From Acidimicrobiia bacterium (lineage in GTDB: Bacteria; Actinomycetota; Acidimicrobiia; Spongiisociales; ZC4RG35), in NCBI GenBank assembly GCA_035550735.1, contig DASZOM010000041.1, forward strand, positions 4,216 to 68,215: a stretch of DNA of 64,000 nt, in the 5' to 3' direction. A program made the position numbers and the translations under genes. Of this stretch, positions 6,907 to 51,983 are shown one piece after another. The stretch's first letter is position 1. Every line of letters starts with the position of its first letter. The notes under the pieces were generated by a model. The model searched no databases, was not told the DNA's origin, and saw nothing but the letters and a program-made list of their open reading frames with translations.

Positions 6907-8061
6907 TCACGGGGTGAAGTTCGAGGCGTCGATCGCACCTGAGGCGATGTCGGCCAGGATCTGCTGCACCTCCGCGTCCAGCTCCTCGGGCACACGGTCG
7001 GCCCACGAGTGGTACTCGGCCAGCCCGACACCCTGGTTGGAGAGGTTCCCAACCTCGCCGCCAGCAGTCCAGCCGCCATTGGCGTGGTCCTCGAGGGAGC
7101 GGGTGACCTGGAGGGCGATCGCCTTCTCGATCGTGGTCAGCCACAGGTCCTGGTACTCAGGCGGAGCAGCATCGAACGCGTCCTGGTCGACACCGATCAG
7201 GGCAGCCTCGAGGCCTCGGTCCTGGATGGCGGTGCCACAGGGCAGGTTGATCGCCCCACCGACCGGCAGGATGATGTCGGCGCCTTCGTCGAGCAGGCTC
7301 TCACAGGTGGCCCGGACGACCGGGTCGGCCGGGTCGAACGTCCCGGTGAAGGTGCCGTCCTGGGCCTCGACGTCCCATCCGAGGACCTGGACATCTGTGC
7401 CCTTGACCTCGTTGTAGTGGGCCACACCCCGGGCGAGGCCGTCGAGGAAGATGGCCACGGTCGGGATGTTGAGACCGCCGTAGGTGCCGATGATCCCTGA
7501 CTGGGAGACGCCGGCGGCGAGATAGCCGGCCGCGAAGGCGGCTTCGTCGGTCTGGTAGACCAACTCGCGCACATTGTCGATGTCGGGGTCGTAGCCGAAG
7601 TCCACGATCGTCCAGTTGATGTCCGGATTCGCCGCGGCGTTGGTCGCAGTGGCGTCACCGAGCTGGAATCCCACGGTCACGATGTGCGTGGCACCTTGGC
7701 TGATGCACTGGTCGATGTTGGGCTGGTAGTCGGCCTCATCGTCGGACTCCAGGAGAATCGGGTCCTCAGCGGCGAATCCCGCCGCCACCGCATCCTGAAC
7801 ACCCTGCCAGGCGGCCGCATTGAAGCTGCGGTCGTCGACACCGGCGAGGTCGGTCACCAGACAGGCGACGACGGCTTCGACGTCCCCACCGGTGGTGGTA
7901 GTGCCGTCTCCGCCCGTGGTCGTGGTCGCCGGCGCCCCCGTGGTGGTGGTCTCGGCTCCCCCGGTTGTGGTGGTATCCCCGCCCTCGTCGGCCGGGGAGC
8001 ACGCCGCAAGGACGAGCCCCAGGGCCGCGAAGACCGCGAGATACCTCGAGTAGCGTTTCAC
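6907..8061 (-). CDS. BMP-family ABC transporter substrate-binding lipoprotein (nucleoside/purine binding type)
   Basis: GTG start at 8061 with GGAGG 9 nt upstream; lipoprotein signal LAVFAALGLVLAAC and Thr/Gly-rich linker (TTTTGG repeats). Last gene of the minus-strand SBP-ATPase-permease-permease operon. Confidence 0.85.
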   Translation of the reverse strand: MKRYSRYLAVFAALGLVLAACSPADEGGDTTTTGGAETTTTGAPATTTTGGDGTTTTGGDVEAVVACLVTDLAGVDDRSFNAAAWQGVQDAVAAGFAAEDPILLESDDEADYQPNIDQCISQGATHIVTVGFQLGDATATNAAANPDINWTIVDFGYDPDIDNVRELVYQTDEAAFAAGYLAAGVSQSGIIGTYGGLNIPTVAIFLDGLARGVAHYNEVKGTDVQVLGWDVEAQDGTFTGTFDPADPVVRATCESLLDEGADIILPVGGAINLPCGTAIQDRGLEAALIGVDQDAFDAAPPEYQDLWLTTIEKAIALQVTRSLEDHANGGWTAGGEVGNLSNQGVGLAEYHSWADRVPEELDAEVQQILADIASGAIDASNFTP

Positions 8062-8214
8062 GCTGATTTTCCTCCGTAGATCGGGGTTGGGCGAAGATCG
8101 CCCGAGCGGGCAGATTAGTGGGGGTCCTGCCCGTTTCGCATTCCGGAGCGGCTGCTTTCCAAAAGGTCCAGAGCCTCGATGCGAGACGTGGGGCACCAGG
8201 AAACGGGCTGGGAT

Positions 8215-16263: not shown

Positions 16264-17214
16264 TCAGAGGACGAGAGGGATGAGCCTCGACCTCACCATT
16301 TCCCGGTAGGCCCGATAGCCCGGGAAGTGCATCCGCAACCGTCTCTCCTCGTAGTCGGCCTTCACCCAGAGATAGGCGAGCAACATCAGGGAGACGGCCA
16401 ACGCCGACAGGCTTCCCAGCAGCAGCCCGGCCCCCATCGCCATGAGCACGATGCCGCCATAGATGGGATGGCGGACGAGGCCGTAGGAACCAACGGTCAC
16501 CAGGCGAGTCTGCGAACGCGGGAGCGGGCTCATCGTCAGCGAAGGGCCGAGCCGACGGCTGGCATCGAGAGCCAGCCCGACACCGAAGACGGCCAGGGCG
16601 GCGCCCATCAGCGTCGAGACCGTCACCCGGTCCGGCAGGGAGCCCTCGAGCCAGAGGACGGTGATCAACAGGGCGATGATGGCGAGCTGGCCGGCGACCA
16701 GTGCTACTGCCGGCAATCGCGGCCTGGGAGGCAGCCAGCGGCGGGCGAGGAGATCGACATCCTGATCGTCCACCTCCTCCAGGGCGACGGACGCAGAGAG
16801 CTCGTCGGACACCGGAGCCTCGGGCCAGACCTCGACGAGGGGGCGGAGCACGAACTCACGCTCCGTGGCTCGGGGATGGGGGACGGTCAGCTGCTGGGTG
16901 TGGATTGGAGGTCCGTCGGATGACACGATGTCGAGGTCGAGCGTCCTCGGCCCCCAGCGCACGTCTCGTTCCCGGCCCTCCTGCTGCTCGATCTCGTGGA
17001 GACGGGCGAGGAGCTCGAAGACGTCGAGCTCGGAGTCGAGGGCCACGACCGCGTTGAGGTAGGGGCCCTGCTCGGGCCCGCCGACCGGAGCGGTCTCGTA
17101 CAACGACGACACCACCATGCCGGCTCCGATCCGGGTCAGGGCGGCATGGGCCCTCTCCAGGTGGGCGAGACGGTCGCCGACGTTGGAGCCGAGACCGATG
17201 GCGTAGCGGGTCAC
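16264..17214 (-). CDS. folK: HPPK (FolK) fused to a C-terminal polytopic ICMT/PEMT-like methyltransferase-family membrane domain
   Basis: N-terminus MTRYAIGLGSNVGDRLAHL...TEREFVLRPL is HPPK. The C-terminal ~150 aa have 4 TM segments with RHPIYGG and EERRLRMHFPGYRAYREMV motifs in one continuous frame. GTG start overlaps the folB stop. Confidence 0.75.
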   Translation of the reverse strand: MTRYAIGLGSNVGDRLAHLERAHAALTRIGAGMVVSSLYETAPVGGPEQGPYLNAVVALDSELDVFELLARLHEIEQQEGRERDVRWGPRTLDLDIVSSDGPPIHTQQLTVPHPRATEREFVLRPLVEVWPEAPVSDELSASVALEEVDDQDVDLLARRWLPPRPRLPAVALVAGQLAIIALLITVLWLEGSLPDRVTVSTLMGAALAVFGVGLALDASRRLGPSLTMSPLPRSQTRLVTVGSYGLVRHPIYGGIVLMAMGAGLLLGSLSALAVSLMLLAYLWVKADYEERRLRMHFPGYRAYREMVRSRLIPLVL

Positions 17215-34751: not shown

Positions 34752-35138
34752 TCAGGGGTGGAGCCAGCGGGCGGGGTCGAATTCGGCACGGCTCGAACCC
34801 CTCACCGTCAGGCTGCCGAACACCGGAACCCGGGTCTGCACCGCCGCCACCACCTCGACCACCCGCGCCCGCAACCGATCGTCCCGGGCGCACTTGCACC
34901 CGATCAGGACGGCGCCGTTGGCCTCGACCACTGCCCGGGCCACGGTCCCCGGGTCCCCGTCTCCGGCAGGCGGATAGGTGGCCACGGCGGCGGCGAGAGC
35001 GCCCGCATCCGCCGCGGTCTGAGCGAGGGCCCGAGCGGCGTAGAGCGATGCGAGGGCGGCCACGGCGATCGCCGAGACGGCGATGACCGCGACCAGAGCG
35101 GTCATCACGAGGGTGGCCGACCCCCGGTCGTCCCTCAA
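34752..35138 (-). CDS. TadE-like pilus assembly protein (helicase/secretion-neighbourhood TadE family)
   Basis: N-terminal DDRGSATLVMTALVAV. TTG start overlapping the upstream stop. Confidence 0.55.
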   Translation of the reverse strand: MRDDRGSATLVMTALVAVIAVSAIAVAALASLYAARALAQTAADAGALAAAVATYPPAGDGDPGTVARAVVEANGAVLIGCKCARDDRLRARVVEVVAAVQTRVPVFGSLTVRGSSRAEFDPARWLHP

Positions 35139-35518
35139 CGCTCCACGAGCATCGTCGCCGACGCCGAGACCTCGAACCCGAAGTCGTCGAGGAACGGGAC
35201 CGGGAGGACATGACGCATTCGGGCGGTGACCTTCGCCGGTCTGCCCACTACACCCGGCCTGCTGACCGAGATCCGCACCCTGTCGCGATCCGCCGGTGAG
35301 AGGGCGTCGCGCACCGCCGAGACCGCCCGCGCCGGGTCGGGCGTGGTCGCCGCCACCCTGGCGCCCTCCCGAACGGCCCCGAGCAACTCGACCTTGGTGC
35401 GGGCCACCGAGATCACCTGGATCCCGGCGGCCAGCACCACTATCAGGAGTGGCACGACGAGGAAGAACTCCACCGTGACCGACCCCCGCTCCCCGCTCAG
35501 AACGCGCCTGCGACCCAA
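35135..35518 (-). CDS. TadE-like pilus assembly protein
   Basis: N-terminal ERGSVTVEFFLVVPLL motif characteristic of the TadE/TadG family. TTG start. Confidence 0.65.
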   Translation of the reverse strand: MGRRRVLSGERGSVTVEFFLVVPLLIVVLAAGIQVISVARTKVELLGAVREGARVAATTPDPARAVSAVRDALSPADRDRVRISVSRPGVVGRPAKVTARMRHVLPVPFLDDFGFEVSASATMLVER

Positions 35519-35709
35519 TTGATCACCTTGCCGAACAGGTCCCCGAGGAGACCGCCCCCGCTACCCGACTGGATCCACTTGAGCGCGATGATCGCCAATG
35601 CGGTGGCCGCCAGGATCACCAGGAAGTACTCCACGGTGGCCTGGCCCCGATCGTCGGCGAGACGGGCCCATGCCCGGCTCCAGATTCGTGTCATGGACAC
35701 TCCTTCCAA
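35497..35709 (-). CDS. flp: Flp/Fap-family type IVb pilin
   Basis: Class III prepilin signal ...DDRGQATVEYFLVILAATALAI; about 50 aa mature. Confidence 0.65.
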   Translation of the reverse strand: MEGVSMTRIWSRAWARLADDRGQATVEYFLVILAATALAIIALKWIQSGSGGGLLGDLFGKVINWVAGAF

Positions 35710-35745
35710 ACCGGTAGCCGACCGGTGCGGGAGGAAGTGCGGAAG

Positions 35746-36300
35746 TCATCCCAGGACCCCGGTCAGCTCGGAGAACATGCCGAGGAGAGATGGGCCGTAG
35801 AGGAGGAGAACCAACCCGGGAAGCATGAGCAGGGTCACCGGCAGCATCAGCTTGACCGGCAAGGCCCGTGCCCGGGCGATCCGACGGGCCCGCTCAGCGG
35901 CGAGCTCACCATCCAGCATGCGACGCACCGCCCCGCTCAGCGATGCGCCGGAGCGTTGCGCCCTGGCCAGCTGGGCGAGCACGGGCCCGAGGGCCTCATC
36001 GGCATGGCTCAGCGATTCGGTCAGCCCGGTGACCCGGGCCACCCGCGCCACCGAGCGCAGGGCGCCGTACCGGGGCAGCGCCTGTGAGGTCTCGATGAGG
36101 CTGGCGAGAACGGACAACCCGGAGCGAAGACCAACGAGGAGGAGCAACAGGACGAGACGCACCGGCGGGTCCGGTTGCGGCCGGTTCTTCGCCCGGGCCC
36201 ACATCAGGGGCAGCGAAGCGCCGATGGCCGCCCCCAGAGGGCCGGCGACCACCAGACCGAGCGAGGCGGCGACGATGGAGCTCACTTCTCCGCCCTCCAC
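35746..36300 (-). CDS. tadC: type II secretion system F-family protein TadC
   Basis: Polytopic T2SSF-like membrane protein in the tad locus. Confidence 0.7.
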   Translation of the reverse strand: MEGGEVSSIVAASLGLVVAGPLGAAIGASLPLMWARAKNRPQPDPPVRLVLLLLLVGLRSGLSVLASLIETSQALPRYGALRSVARVARVTGLTESLSHADEALGPVLAQLARAQRSGASLSGAVRRMLDGELAAERARRIARARALPVKLMLPVTLLMLPGLVLLLYGPSLLGMFSELTGVLG

Positions 36301-36914
36301 ACCACCACGAACGCGATGCAGAGACCGGCCAGGAACAGGCCCAGACCGAGGATCGCCACCATCCGCTGCTGGGGTGACGCAAGGAGGTCGGCGAGCTTGC
36401 CCGAGCCGGACTGGCCGAGCAGATAGGCCAGAGGCGCACCGAGCAGGATCAGGGCCGTGGCGCGCCCGGGTGCCGTGGCCACCTTGACCTCACGACGGAT
36501 CTCCGATTGGGCGAGGGCCAATGCGCCGATCTCATCGAACAGTGCCGCCGTGTCACTCCCCGTTCGCGCCGCGCTGAGCAGGGTCAGCCTCAGCTCCTCA
36601 CCGATCTGAGGGAACCCTGCAGCGACGTAACCGGCCAGGTGCTCCAGGGTCTGGTCCGATGCCACCGCCAGCCCGCCAACCGAGACCGCGGCGCCCATCA
36701 CCGCATGACGCAGGGTGGCGCCTGCTCGGAGCTCGGACGCCACTGCCTCACAGAACAGCGCCGGACGCATGTCCTGGGCCGGACGGCTCCGCCAGGCCAG
36801 CAATGCGATCGCTGCGGCGACCACGACGGGCGCATAGGCGACGGCGGCGAGAATCGCCACGCGTCGCAGATCGACATCGAGGAAGACCGCGATTGCGAGG
36901 AGCAGGGGGATCAC
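36282..36914 (-). CDS. tadB: type II secretion system F-family protein TadB
   Basis: T2SSF-like. GTG start at 36914 overlaps the tadA stop (GTGA); upstream sequence in the table ORF is an alternate-frame run-on over tadA. Confidence 0.7.
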   Translation of the reverse strand: MIPLLLAIAVFLDVDLRRVAILAAVAYAPVVVAAAIALLAWRSRPAQDMRPALFCEAVASELRAGATLRHAVMGAAVSVGGLAVASDQTLEHLAGYVAAGFPQIGEELRLTLLSAARTGSDTAALFDEIGALALAQSEIRREVKVATAPGRATALILLGAPLAYLLGQSGSGKLADLLASPQQRMVAILGLGLFLAGLCIAFVVVWRAEK

Positions 36915-37981
36915 GCCGCAGCCTTCAGGTCCGGGGCGTCGGCGACAGCGACGATCTTGCGCTCGGCACCCACCCGCTCGATCTGAACCACCATGTCGAC
37001 GGCGGTGCGCAACTGCCTCCCCACCGCGGCCTCGGAGGTGTCCCCAGCGCTCAACGCCAGGGTCTCCAGTCGGAGGAGGGACTCCTCGGGGGAGTTGGCG
37101 TGCACCGTGGTCAGGGAGCCGCGATGACCGGTGTTGAGTGCCGAGATCAGATCGAGTGCCTCCGGCCCGCGCACCTCCCCGACGATGATCCGGTCGGGAC
37201 GGAGGCGGAGGGCCGAGCGGAGGAGCGAGCGGACCGTGATGGCACCGGCGCCCTCGGCGTTCGCCGGTCGGGCCTCGAGCCGGACCACATGGCCGGGAAG
37301 AGCGAGCTCGGCGGCCTCCTCGATGGTCACCACCCGCTCCGTCGGGTCGATGACACCGGCGAGCAGGTTGAGGAGCGTGGTCTTGCCTGCGCCCGTGCCG
37401 CCCGAAACCACGATGGTCTTCCGCATCGTCACCGCCTGGACCAGACGCCCTACCTGGGCCTCGGTTGCAGTGCCGGCGCGTATCAGGTCGTCGAGGGCTC
37501 CGACCCTCTGGGTGAATCGCCTTATCGCGATCAGCGGGTGGTCGACCGAGGCCGGCGGCAGCACCGCGTGGAGACGAGAGCCATCGGGGAGCCGGGCATC
37601 GACCATCGGAGATGCCCGGTCGAGGCGCAGCCCGAGCGGTGCGATCACCCGCTCCACCGTCGCCACCATGTCCTCGTCGGAGATGAAGCCGACAGGGACC
37701 CTTTGCAGACCTTGGCCCCGGTCCACCCAAACCTCCTGATGACCGTTCACCAGGACGTCGCTCACGTCGGGATCCTCGAAGAGTGCCTGGATCGGGCCCA
37801 GGCCCACGACGCGGTCCACGACCGCATCCACCGCATCGCGCTCCAGCCATGGCGCCTCGAGGTCGAGCATCCGGCGGGCCTCCCACGCCAGGTCGGCACG
37901 CTCGAACTCGGTCTCCCCAAGGGCGATCGCCCTGCTGAGACGTTCGATCACGCCCATGGCATCTCCCAAACCGGGCCCCAT
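36911..37981 (-). CDS. tadA: Tad pilus assembly ATPase TadA/CpaF
   Basis: Walker A SGGTGAGKTT, Walker B, His box HANS. The 757-aa table ORF is a run-on; ATG at 37981 or 37957. Confidence 0.85.
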   Translation of the reverse strand: MGPGLGDAMGVIERLSRAIALGETEFERADLAWEARRMLDLEAPWLERDAVDAVVDRVVGLGPIQALFEDPDVSDVLVNGHQEVWVDRGQGLQRVPVGFISDEDMVATVERVIAPLGLRLDRASPMVDARLPDGSRLHAVLPPASVDHPLIAIRRFTQRVGALDDLIRAGTATEAQVGRLVQAVTMRKTIVVSGGTGAGKTTLLNLLAGVIDPTERVVTIEEAAELALPGHVVRLEARPANAEGAGAITVRSLLRSALRLRPDRIIVGEVRGPEALDLISALNTGHRGSLTTVHANSPEESLLRLETLALSAGDTSEAAVGRQLRTAVDMVVQIERVGAERKIVAVADAPDLKAAA

Positions 37982-38502
37982 GCCGACACCCAACGACTTC
38001 GTCGCGGCAGATGCCCGGAGAGAATGCGACGCAGCGCTCCGGGTCGGAGCCGGGGCAACACCGGGCCAGGGCCCGGTGGCGTCGCTCCTGTCCCCACGGG
38101 CTGCCATACGCCGCTGGCCCCGACCGGGATCGGAGCCAGCCGGCCCGGGAACAATGGGATCACCGGCACCACCGGGAACTCCCAGCCGTCGTCGTCGACT
38201 CTGAGCACGATCGCCGGCCAGCGTGTCGACAGCCGCCCGACGAGCTCGACCGCCTCCCCCCGCTCGACGCCGCCGCCGGCGAGGAGGGCGACACCGGATC
38301 GTCCCGGGCTCAGCTCGGCCAAGGTCGGCCCGTCGGTCTGGAATCCACGCATGCTCCGGCTGGTCGGACTCGCCCCCTGAGCGCAGAGATCGATGACGAG
38401 CCCGGTTCCGGCCGCGGCTGCAAGACCGATGGGCGCCACCACCGACAGGATGAGATCGGGCGAGCGCACGCCCAGCACCAGGTGTCTCCCCTTCCCTGTC
38501 AT
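37948..38502 (-). CDS. hypothetical tad-locus protein (possible degenerate CpaE/Ssd-like)
   Basis: Occupies the position of the CpaE-like gene upstream of tadA, but no intact P-loop. Its start codon overlaps the divergent HAD gene start (CATG). Confidence 0.3.
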   Translation of the reverse strand: MTGKGRHLVLGVRSPDLILSVVAPIGLAAAAGTGLVIDLCAQGASPTSRSMRGFQTDGPTLAELSPGRSGVALLAGGGVERGEAVELVGRLSTRWPAIVLRVDDDGWEFPVVPVIPLFPGRLAPIPVGASGVWQPVGTGATPPGPGPVLPRLRPGALRRILSGHLPRRSRWVSAWGPVWEMPWA

Positions 38503-49625: not shown

Positions 49626-50510
49626 GTGACTCGGGTCATCCAGGCCGCGGGCGGTCTCGTCTTCCGCGAGTCCTCCAAGGGGAAGCTGAAGATCCTGGTG
49701 GCGCATCGGCCGCGCTACGACGACTGGGCCCTCCCCAAGGGGAAGTCCGACGATGGGGAGACAGCGGAGGAGACCGCGGTTCGGGAGGTCCTGGAGGAGA
49801 CCGGCTATCACTGTCGTGTGGTGGCGCCGCTCGGGGTCACCCGTTACCGGGTCGACGGCGGGGTCAAGGAGGTGGCATGGTTCGCGATGAGACCGTTGCC
49901 TGACAGCCCCGGGTTCCGGGCGAACAAAGAGGTGGATGAGATCCGCTGGCTGACCCGCAAACAGGCGATGGGGGTGTTCGACTACGAGAACGACCGAAAC
50001 CTGGTCTCTGAATCGGGTCTGAAGAAGCTGGCCCGCACCGGCAATATCTTCCTCCTCCGGCATGCGACCGCGGGAGACCGCGCCCGGTTCGATGGCGTGG
50101 ACTCCGACCGACCCCTGACCAAGAAGGGGCGCCGCCAGGCGGAGTCGATAGCGAAGTCGCTGGCCGCGAGAGGGATCGAGCGCATCTACACCAGCCCCTA
50201 CACACGATGTGTGGAGTCGGTGAAGCCGCTTGCGAAGCTCACCGGCGCCAAGATCCGCCGACGCGACGCACTCGCCGAGGGACCCGACGTCGACGCCGCC
50301 TACGCCCTCATCGACGAGTCGGTCGGATACAACACCGTGCTCTGCAGCCACGGGGACGTCATCCCGGCGGTGATCAATCGGATGATGTGGGCCGGGCTGA
50401 CCCTCGAGTCGCGCTTCTATTGCTCCAAGGGCTCGATCTGGGAGGTCGACCTGGTGGCGGGTCGCTTCACGACCGCCCGCTATGTCCCTCCGCCGAAGCT
50501 CAGCTCTTAG
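49626..50510 (+). CDS. MutT1-like bifunctional protein: NUDIX hydrolase fused to histidine phosphatase (SixA/PGAM) domain
   Basis: Nudix box GKSDDGETAEETAVREVLEETG, then RHATAG...H motif of the histidine phosphatase superfamily. GTG start. Confidence 0.8.
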   Translation: MTRVIQAAGGLVFRESSKGKLKILVAHRPRYDDWALPKGKSDDGETAEETAVREVLEETGYHCRVVAPLGVTRYRVDGGVKEVAWFAMRPLPDSPGFRANKEVDEIRWLTRKQAMGVFDYENDRNLVSESGLKKLARTGNIFLLRHATAGDRARFDGVDSDRPLTKKGRRQAESIAKSLAARGIERIYTSPYTRCVESVKPLAKLTGAKIRRRDALAEGPDVDAAYALIDESVGYNTVLCSHGDVIPAVINRMMWAGLTLESRFYCSKGSIWEVDLVAGRFTTARYVPPPKLSS

Positions 50511-51232
50511 GGGAGATCAGGCCGGCTGATCGAAGTCGTGGCCCCACTCTGCGGGTAAGCGACCTGTTCGCCGGCATGGTTCCAGGTGGTGATGGAGACC
50601 ACCTCCACCTGGATCTCCATGATCCCGGTGACGTTGCCCTTGTTGACCTTCAGCGTGTTGTCGTCGTGGGTGAAGGTGGCTACACCGCCCGCAGGCACCT
50701 GGAATCCCTCGACGGTCGTGGTCTTCTTCTTCCCCTTGTGGTCGATGGTTGTGACCTTGAGGGTGAGGATCTGGTCGGAAGACCAGTCGTTGCCGAAGTC
50801 CACCGAGGCGGCCCAAGTGCCGTTGCCCCCGTTCTTGGTTGCCGTCCATACGGAGATCTCCGACCCGGACGAGGTGGGGACGGCAGTGTCGCCACCCTCC
50901 TCGGGGACTGTGGTGGTGGTCGTCGTCGGGGCGGTGGTGGTCGTCGCCGCCGGGGCGGTGGTGGTCGTGGTCGTCGCCGGCGTCGTCGTGCTGGTCGTCG
51001 TCGGGGACGCCCCGCCGTCGCCGGGGACGGATTCGTCGCCAGGGGTCGTCACGACCTCGCCGCCGCCTCCGCTCGAATCGAACGCGGCGGTGACGTCATC
51101 GAAGCTCTCCTCCGTGTTGTCACCGAGGAGCGTCACGGCGGAGAAGGAGAGGAGCGAGACGAGGGCGGTGATGAGCCCGTACTCGACCATGGCCGCTCCT
51201 CGCTCGCCATGTGACCTCGTGAGGATGTTCAT
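50507..51232 (-). CDS. Flp-prepilin-like protein with long Thr/Pro-rich linker and C-terminal beta-rich domain
   Basis: N-terminus MNILTRSHGERGAAMVEYGLITALVSLL is a class III prepilin signal. It is followed by TTTSTTTPATTTTTTAPAATTTTAPTTTTTT and a ~100-aa domain. Confidence 0.6.
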   Translation of the reverse strand: MNILTRSHGERGAAMVEYGLITALVSLLSFSAVTLLGDNTEESFDDVTAAFDSSGGGGEVVTTPGDESVPGDGGASPTTTSTTTPATTTTTTAPAATTTTAPTTTTTTVPEEGGDTAVPTSSGSEISVWTATKNGGNGTWAASVDFGNDWSSDQILTLKVTTIDHKGKKKTTTVEGFQVPAGGVATFTHDDNTLKVNKGNVTGIMEIQVEVVSITTWNHAGEQVAYPQSGATTSISRPDLP

Positions 51233-51377
51233 GAAGCCTGGATCGTCACGGTCGACGAATCACCGAATAGAGCGAGAGACCCCCGTCGCTAGGCCTAGTT
51301 CGATCGACTCACCTGTCGTTCGGATGTCTCTCTCCCGGGGATAGGCTCGGTGGGCGAGATCCGCCCAGAGAGGAAGC

Positions 51378-51983
51378 ATGGAGCTGACCGCCACGATGAT
51401 GCTGACCGTGGACGGCGTATACCAGGGTCCCGGTGCCCCCGAGGAGGATCGACGAGGGGGGTTCGAGCGAGGGGGCTGGGTTGCGCCTCATTTCGACGAA
51501 GAGGCAGGGCGCTTCGTGAACGAGGTGTTCGAGCGAGCCGACGCCCTGCTCCTCGGCCGCCGGACCTGGGAGATCTTCGAGGCCTACTGGCCGCATCACG
51601 ACGAGGGCGACCCAGTCTCCCACGGGATCAACATCCTGCCCAAATACGTGCCCTCGACCACGCTGAAGGACCCGACGTGGCAGAACACACACGTCATCGC
51701 GGGCGACGTCGAGACCGCGATCCGCGACCTCAAGGCCGAGCCCGGGGGTGAGCTCCAGGTCCATGGCAGCGGTGCCCTGCTCCGTTGGCTCCTCGAGCGC
51801 GACCTCGTCGACGAGCTCAATCTGGAGATCCACCCGGTGATCGTGGGTGATGGGCTGCGGCTCTTCCCCGAACACGGTCAGACCCACGACCTGACCCTGG
51901 TCGAATCTCGGACCACGCCGTCCGGGGTGACGCTGCAGACCTATCGACCCGCGGGTCGGGCGACCTTCGGGACCGTCGGCTGA
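51378..51983 (+). CDS. dihydrofolate reductase-like (RibD C-terminal domain) family protein
   Basis: LLLGRRTWEIF...VHGSGALLRWLL pattern of the RibD_C/DHFR family. Confidence 0.8.
   Translation: MELTATMMLTVDGVYQGPGAPEEDRRGGFERGGWVAPHFDEEAGRFVNEVFERADALLLGRRTWEIFEAYWPHHDEGDPVSHGINILPKYVPSTTLKDPTWQNTHVIAGDVETAIRDLKAEPGGELQVHGSGALLRWLLERDLVDELNLEIHPVIVGDGLRLFPEHGQTHDLTLVESRTTPSGVTLQTYRPAGRATFGTVG

Follow-up and report, generated by a model that had tools for sequence, protein, structure and literature searches.

Pilins of the Flp type are cut after a glycine by a prepilin peptidase of the A24 family, and their helix forms the core of the filament. In the structural and review literature, Tad/Flp pilins are helices of 40-80 residues that carry no globular domain, and to our knowledge this literature attributes the functional diversification of Tad pili entirely to minor pilins of the TadE/F/G type. 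Here we describe a stretch of 64,000 nucleotides (hereafter the window) from contig DASZOM010000041.1 of an Acidimicrobiia bacterium, in which a gene on the minus strand (50507..51232) encodes a 241-residue protein that begins like an Flp prepilin, continues into a long spacer and ends in a β-sandwich domain. In the solved Tad pilus of Caulobacter, the C-terminal end of Flp is exposed on the surface (PMC10710030). Modular pilins are an established and widespread strategy among pilins with the IPR012902 motif, where the added module may be located at the tip or, given a flexible linker, in the shaft (PMC8179133). The tips of Tad pili are functionalised by the modular minor pilins TadG and KilN, and the major Flp gene can be an orphan located far from the genes of the machinery (PMC12075869).

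We tentatively favour the reading that the protein is a modular Flp (type IVc) pilin of low abundance, which displays a binding module from the Tad filament. The protein would insert in the membrane via its Flp helix, a prepilin peptidase of the TadV/CpaA type, with its gene outside the window, would cut off the 12-residue leader after Gly12, and the Tad machine would take the helix into the filament as a low-abundance subunit. This machine could be encoded by the actinobacterial tad locus 15 kb away, or else by another tad locus, of the classical kind, at some other place in the genome. As the Caulobacter structure has the Flp C-terminus at the surface of the filament, the spacer, which is probably O-glycosylated, would project outwards and present the β-sandwich as a binding module. 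An earlier note on this DNA proposed the protein as a minor or tip pilin or as an adhesin; these roles, like the O-glycosylation of the spacer, are putative.

Flp head, spacer and β-sandwich domain

The N-terminus of the protein reads MNILTRSHGERG/AAMVEYGLITALVSLLSFSAVTLLG, where the slash marks the predicted cut, and residues 1-51 (MNILTRSHGERG/AAMVEYGLITALVSLLSFSAVTLLGDNTEESFDDVTAAFD) comprise all parts of an Flp prepilin: a leader, a G/xxxxEY motif, a hydrophobic helix and a polar tail. The leader peptide (residues 1-12, MNILTRSHGERG; 51197..51232, minus strand) ends with the glycine that precedes the predicted prepilin-peptidase cut. The mature Flp module (residues 13-51; 51080..51196, minus strand) contains the AAMVEY motif, the hydrophobic helix and the polar tail LLGDNTEESFDDVTAAFD. 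The class III signal, ERG/AAMVEY, has its E(Y) at mature positions 5-6. The Pfam profile Flp_Fap matches residues 10-51 at profile positions 5-46 of 46 with E=1.2e-7 and a score of 31.9 bits (gathering cut-off 32.2 bits), and no match to the Pfam profiles TadE, Tad or N_methyl is found in the protein at E<=10. In the N-terminal alignment of the family, R11, G12, E17 and Y18 are invariant. In the full alignment of 34 sequences the invariant head residues are V16, E17 and Y18; G12 is missing from this set since a good many of the database sequences begin downstream of it.

The head of the protein is co-linear, from the leader to the last residue, with complete 60-residue Flp pilins from Acidimicrobiia and other actinobacteria, and the spacer begins exactly at the point where the ordinary pilins stop. 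The N-terminal profile of the family yields 7,965 matches, the best 120 of which are all PF04964 proteins of 50-88 residues (E about 1e-16), and many homologues of the protein carry the PF04964 flag themselves. Judged from its sequence, and in agreement with the earlier note, the protein truly starts with a class III prepilin module of the Flp type. The same note called the protein oversized, and it is indeed 3-4 times longer than ordinary Flp pilins.

The spacer (residues 52-117; 50882..51079, minus strand) is a low-complexity segment that is first Gly/Asp/Ser-rich and then Thr/Pro/Ala-rich. It is predicted to be disordered: AlphaFold2 (AF2) assigns no secondary structure to residues 51-117, with a predicted local distance difference test score (pLDDT) mostly between 42 and 72. 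Threonine makes up 38% of the 66 residues, glycine 15% and proline 11%. The Thr-rich tract pointed out earlier forms the core of this spacer (residues 76-109, PTTTSTTTPATTTTTTAPAATTTTAPTTTTTTVP; 50906..51007, minus strand) and is a candidate O-glycosylation tract; its DNA is an imperfect tandem repeat of 24/30 nucleotides (50901-51006). Matching linkers had also been claimed for two other proteins of the window. The BMP lipoprotein (6907-8196, minus strand) does have one, a tract of (TTTT-Gly/Ala) repeats at 7891-7974 between the lipobox region and the binding domain. The linker ascribed to a zinc-ribbon protein was not found by two scans of the window for Thr-rich tracts, in which only the Flp-headed protein and the BMP lipoprotein carry such tracts.

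The C-terminal domain (residues 118-241; 50510..50881, minus strand) is predicted by AF2 to be an all-β fold of eight strands (pLDDT 95.4; predicted template-modelling score 0.85). The prediction bears out the earlier proposal of a globular, β-rich domain, whose size has to be corrected from about 100 to about 124 residues. In the full-length AF2 model, the sandwich is not packed against the Flp helix. The domain always occupies the extreme C-terminus, where it ends with AP.TP, and its invariant residues include W129, G138, W140, A142, N148, Q154 and L156. It has no match in Pfam or NCBIfam, a profile search of PDB sequences finds nothing significant, and Foldseek against the PDB gives generic Ig-like matches only (ApaG/DUF525, arrestin lobes and accessory domains of glycosidases; best TM 0.53, identity 10-15%), to which a fold search of BFVD makes no addition. 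By these sequence searches the domain represents an undescribed family. The domain is extracytoplasmic.

The open reading frame extends over exactly the positions given in the earlier note, from an ATG start to a stop codon at 50507-50509. Its third-position GC of 0.88 is typical of real genes in this window, which has a GC content of 67%. Two frames of the plus strand that overlap it, 50586-51344 (252 residues, third-position GC 0.85) and 50207-51214 (335 residues), were rejected as shadow frames; they arise because the Thr codons of the tract are ACC/ACG-rich and the GC content is high. The gene is divergent from a RibD_C gene and convergent with a NUDIX/His-phosphatase gene; in the convergent pair the stop codons overlap at 50507-50510 (TTAG) and no intergenic terminator is present. 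A scan for sigma-70 promoters and terminators returned nothing, a result that is uninformative in a high-GC actinobacterium.

Family members and their module combinations

A search for full-length relatives across 5.8 billion proteins gives 34 homologues at E<=1e-16 with 35-55% identity and lengths of 216-405 residues. All of them are 216-276 residues long except one, P0034, which has 405. Where they are named at all, they are called 'Flp family type IVb pilin' and come from Acidimicrobiia metagenome-assembled genomes. A profile of the C-terminal domain alone, searched against 1.84 billion cluster representatives (50% identity clusters), gives 94 proteins or clusters at E<=1e-3 (70 of them at E<=1e-10), again mostly from Acidimicrobiia metagenome-assembled genomes.

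An Flp-type head is present in 84 of the 122 proteins collected. The order of head, low-complexity spacer and terminal domain is fixed in all 82 Flp-headed members that could be scored, and about 80 sequence clusters share the three-part architecture. It is the spacer that varies, both in length (44-398 residues, median about 75) and in composition, which is Thr-rich in 44 of the 82 and acidic in 31. In 32 of the 84 entries with an Flp-type head, the annotated protein starts at the internal methionine of 'MVEYGL' and lacks the leader (e.g. P0001, P0004, P0010-P0012 and P0015-P0021). The DNA upstream of two such starts, in loci L001 (9992-10018) and L005 (6755-6781), still encodes a leader ending with DRGA. 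Thus, the MVEY starts are miscalled start codons and the leader is conserved, which leaves the databases with an annotation problem: about 40% of the entries of the family are deprived of their leader peptide.

Both the head and the domain occur in other company. In P0068 (614 residues) the C-terminal domain is preceded by three PKD domains and by a pilin head that weakly matches the N_methyl type, so the sandwich recurs as a pilin cargo. The domain is also part of secreted proteins that are not pilins, namely P0052 with a Sec-like signal and P0096 and P0099 (501 and 617 residues) with Tat-like signals. Conversely, the metagenome protein P0034 has the same Flp head and a TTTTT-Pro spacer of the same kind, and its cargo is an α/β-hydrolase (Abhydrolase_1); the head therefore seems to behave as a reusable carrier module. 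With the same domain found on other carriers and the same head found on Abhydrolase_1, head and domain are separable modules.

A separate observation concerns P0096 and P0099, in which the domain lies inside Tat-signal multi-domain proteins with a repeated unknown module that bears cysteines ('DISH(L/M)DLI...GEGWSKHP'). With the single 241-residue protein as the query, a scan of genome contigs picked up nothing but the Flp heads of short pilins, ordinary or in tandem, and so yields no map of how the long form is distributed among taxa.

The tad locus of the window and the surroundings of the gene

All genes of the tad locus are on the minus strand. Its pseudopilin genes (34752..35518) encode a Tad-like protein (34752-35138; Pfam Tad E=3e-3) and TadE (35135-35518; Pfam TadE E=2e-8). 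They are followed by a gene for a short pilin-like protein (35497..35709), by TadC (35746-36300; Pfam T2SSF E=7e-6), by a stretch presumed to be TadB (36285-36986), which has no Pfam match, and by the ATPase TadA with its T2SSE domain (about 36986-37801; E=5e-50). TadC and TadA are candidate assembly machinery, and the machinery encoded at 35746..37801 may serve the Flp-headed protein as well. No TadZ/Ssd gene was recognised upstream of TadA in the region 34752-38100 of the minus strand. PolX, PhoH and topA adjoin the locus. The gene order is the same as in Rv3654c-Rv3659c of M. tuberculosis (PMC9531140), and the locus is of a conserved actinobacterial type.

The earlier note compared the N-terminus of the 241-residue protein with the short pilin of this locus, which it took for an Flp pilin. 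The frame with the quoted sequence is there, and the two proteins share the (D/E)RG context before the cut; its Pfam matches, however, are to DUF4244 (E=5e-9) and, weakly, to the class III signal (Class_IIIsignal, E=3e-3), not to Flp_Fap. The cut contexts in the tad locus are DDRG/QATVEYF (the short pilin), GERG/SVTVEFF and DDRG/SATLVM, and GERG/AAMVEY of the Flp-headed protein is similar to them, so that a single prepilin peptidase could serve all four proteins.

As the earlier note remarked, no such peptidase is evident in the window. No motif of the type GxGD(V/I)K occurs in its six frames, a weak negative obtained by a motif scan and not by a hidden Markov model scan of every frame, and every polytopic membrane protein encoded in the window is accounted for as an ABC or branched-chain-type permease, as TadC or as a fusion of HPPK with a methyltransferase. 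The last of these (16264-17214, minus strand) is unusual in its own right, since it joins HPPK, an enzyme of folate biosynthesis, to a C-terminal PEMT/ICMT-like membrane methyltransferase domain.

The gene of the Flp-headed protein lies in a series that runs from a sigma factor through CBS, HerA-like and two ABC genes to the gene itself, and on to the NUDIX/His-phosphatase, E1 dehydrogenase and aminotransferase genes. The order is conserved in the homologous loci L001, L004 and L005 and in part in L006, and L002/L003, which belong to a more remote clade, show different surroundings. As an orphan the gene is conserved, and since its relatives keep this position, the distance from the tad locus is a trait of the family and not a local accident. 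A 334-residue protein encoded upstream of the homologue in L002/L003 was set aside as an unrelated membrane protein.

The ABC genes beside the gene are of the exporter type (ABC_membrane and ABC_tran). A functional link between this exporter pair and the Flp-headed protein was considered and not adopted: the pair is part of a long block of conserved housekeeping synteny, and in the window the adjacency is broken by the RibD_C insertion. This RibD_C gene (51378-51983, plus strand) lies between the exporter pair and the gene, an insertion relative to L001, L004 and L005. L002 has otherwise different surroundings, yet there too a RibD_C gene lies upstream of the homologue, at a distance of two genes.

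An Acidimicrobiales contig (L008) has two short Flp genes of the ordinary kind in the vicinity of a T2SSF gene of the tadB/C type, and classical Flp loci therefore exist in Acidimicrobiia. A 250-residue membrane protein encoded next to these short Flp genes was examined as a possible peptidase and discarded, as it has neither an A24 motif nor a Pfam match.

Competing readings and relation to described systems

Several of these observations weigh against display from a Tad filament. The gene is remote from the tad locus of the window, as stated in the earlier note: 15 kb and about a dozen unrelated genes lie between them. The locus has a pilin of its own, which is of the DUF4244 type and not a PF04964 protein, the motif scan brought up no candidate for the peptidase in the 64-kb window, and no tad genes stand beside the homologues in the six loci L001-L006 (flanks of up to 10 kb on each side). 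The Flp_Fap score is 0.3 bits below the gathering cut-off. The 'short linker' known from the modular pilins that have been characterised is far exceeded by the spacer in length, the fold searches in the PDB and BFVD give no clue to the function of the sandwich, and P0052, P0096 and P0099 indicate that the sandwich needs no pilin carrier.

A pilin-like membrane anchor with a wall-spanning stalk, never polymerised, is equally compatible with the architecture. Such a non-polymerised surface protein is the main rival, and we consider it a serious, if somewhat unlikely, possibility. The Flp head would act as a class III signal and anchor, cleaved or not, and the spacer would be a stalk across the monoderm wall, glycosylated when Thr-rich; the protein would be a bacterial counterpart of the sugar-binding proteins of the archaeal Sulfolobus bindosome. 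Class III signal peptides are known on surface proteins that form no filaments (PMC3047682). An anchored protein fits with an orphan gene that sits among housekeeping genes and has no tad genes next to it in any of the six loci, with a spacer of at least 44 residues in 82 of 82 scored members, as a wall-crossing distance would demand, and with the similar TTTT stalk of the BMP lipoprotein, itself a membrane-anchored surface protein. The enzyme carried by the Flp head and spacer of P0034 and the presence of the domain on Sec- or Tat-exported proteins that are not pilins point the same way. Yet we know of no bacterial system that resembles the bindosome, and the invariant E17 and Y18, which are tied to pilin assembly, would be superfluous for anchoring alone. 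The family also retains the whole Flp module down to the polar tail, which in the Caulobacter structure contributes contacts and surface to the filament (PMC10710030); this is more than an anchor needs.

Another rival, in which the protein is the major subunit of a decorated Tad-type pilus and each subunit of a bottle-brush filament bears a tethered glycosylated sandwich, is improbable. The outer layer of such a filament would correspond in function to the Ig-like domains on the outside of archaeal type IV pili. C-terminal fusions along the shaft are geometrically possible given the exposed C-terminus of Flp (PMC10710030), a location in the body is possible with a flexible linker according to Raynaud et al. 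(PMC8179133), and orphan major Flp genes such as KilP exist (PMC12075869). The window encodes no short PF04964 pilin that could take the part of the major subunit, but it covers only 64 kb, and the short Flp pilins beside T2SSF in related Acidimicrobiales (L008) suggest that a normal major pilin is probably encoded elsewhere. Moreover, a spacer as hypervariable as this one (44-398 residues) would be unusual in a repeating structural subunit, and the domain is unpacked on the helix in the full-length AF2 model. Very improbable, finally, is an uncleaved signal anchor in which the Flp motif is fortuitous or a relict and which has nothing to do with Tad systems. A Pfam score marginally below threshold and six loci with no tad linkage speak for it; the match, however, covers the entire Flp profile, G, E and Y are invariant across about 80 clusters, the leader is conserved, and the N-terminal profile retrieves thousands of Flp pilins (the 7,965 matches).

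On a broader reading, the Flp head and low-complexity spacer of Acidimicrobiia might form a general carrier cassette that sends different cargos (the sandwich, the α/β-hydrolase) through the prepilin-peptidase/Tad pathway, with a 'bottle-brush' Tad filament or a bindosome-like surface layer as the endpoint. We regard this reading as unlikely; if true, Tad pili or their machinery would be a protein-display system that uses Flp pilins with globular domains.

A literature search found no paper on Flp pilins with a globular C-terminal domain, which is not proof that none exists. What is new, against the known concept of the modular pilin, is the use of Flp as the carrier, the length of the spacer and the domain that serves as cargo. 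If Flp pilins of a conserved family carry a folded domain on a tether, the modular strategy would reach into type IVc pili, and a defined exposed domain would give a handle on Tad function in the abundant, uncultured Acidimicrobiia. The family would also add a new family of extracellular domains for annotation.

Among proteins of known structure, the C-terminal domain shares its overall sandwich topology with ApaG/DUF525 and other Ig-like sandwiches (PDB ids: 1tza, 1xvs, 1xq4; Foldseek E=2.5e-5, TM 0.53). The likeness is generic: identity is 10-15%, the root-mean-square deviation exceeds 5 Å, and there is no sequence-profile relationship (no Pfam match and no match to PDB sequences). ApaG proteins are cytoplasmic.

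Flp/Fap pilins (PF04964), such as Caulobacter PilA and Aggregatibacter Flp1, share with the head of the protein the leader ending in Gly, the G/xxxxEY motif, a hydrophobic helix of roughly 20 residues and the short polar tail. They are small (40-80 residues), fully helical and non-globular, whereas the protein of the window has 241 residues with a 66-residue disordered spacer and a 124-residue β-sandwich, and its gene stands outside the tad locus with no candidate for the TadV/CpaA peptidase in the window. The modular type IV pilins, exemplified by PilB and PilC of Streptococcus sanguinis (Raynaud et al. 2021, PMC8179133), likewise consist of a pilin head onto which a C-terminal module with no specific tie to the biology of pili has been grafted. 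The survey that defined them was based on the IPR012902 (N-methylation) motif, while the head described here is of the Flp type. Those of their linkers that have been characterised are short, compared to 66 residues in this protein and 44-398 residues in its family, and their pilin module includes a small globular part of its own, whereas the cargo described here is an undescribed domain.

The tip minor pilins TadE/TadF/TadG and KilL/M/N (PMC12075869) are pilin-like as well, bear a class III signal and have an additional C-terminal domain, for which a functionalising role in the filament is proposed. In these proteins (PF07811, PF13400), a β-stranded pilin fold follows directly after the helix and the genes belong to tad or tip clusters, unlike the Flp head, disordered spacer and orphan gene described here. 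In the sugar-binding proteins of the Sulfolobus bindosome (PMC3047682), a class III pilin-type signal similarly places a globular protein that is not a pilin at the cell surface. That system is archaeal and depends on the peptidase PibD and the Bas assembly system, and its cargo is a solute-binding protein that works with importers, whereas the ABC genes beside the Flp-headed protein are of the exporter type.

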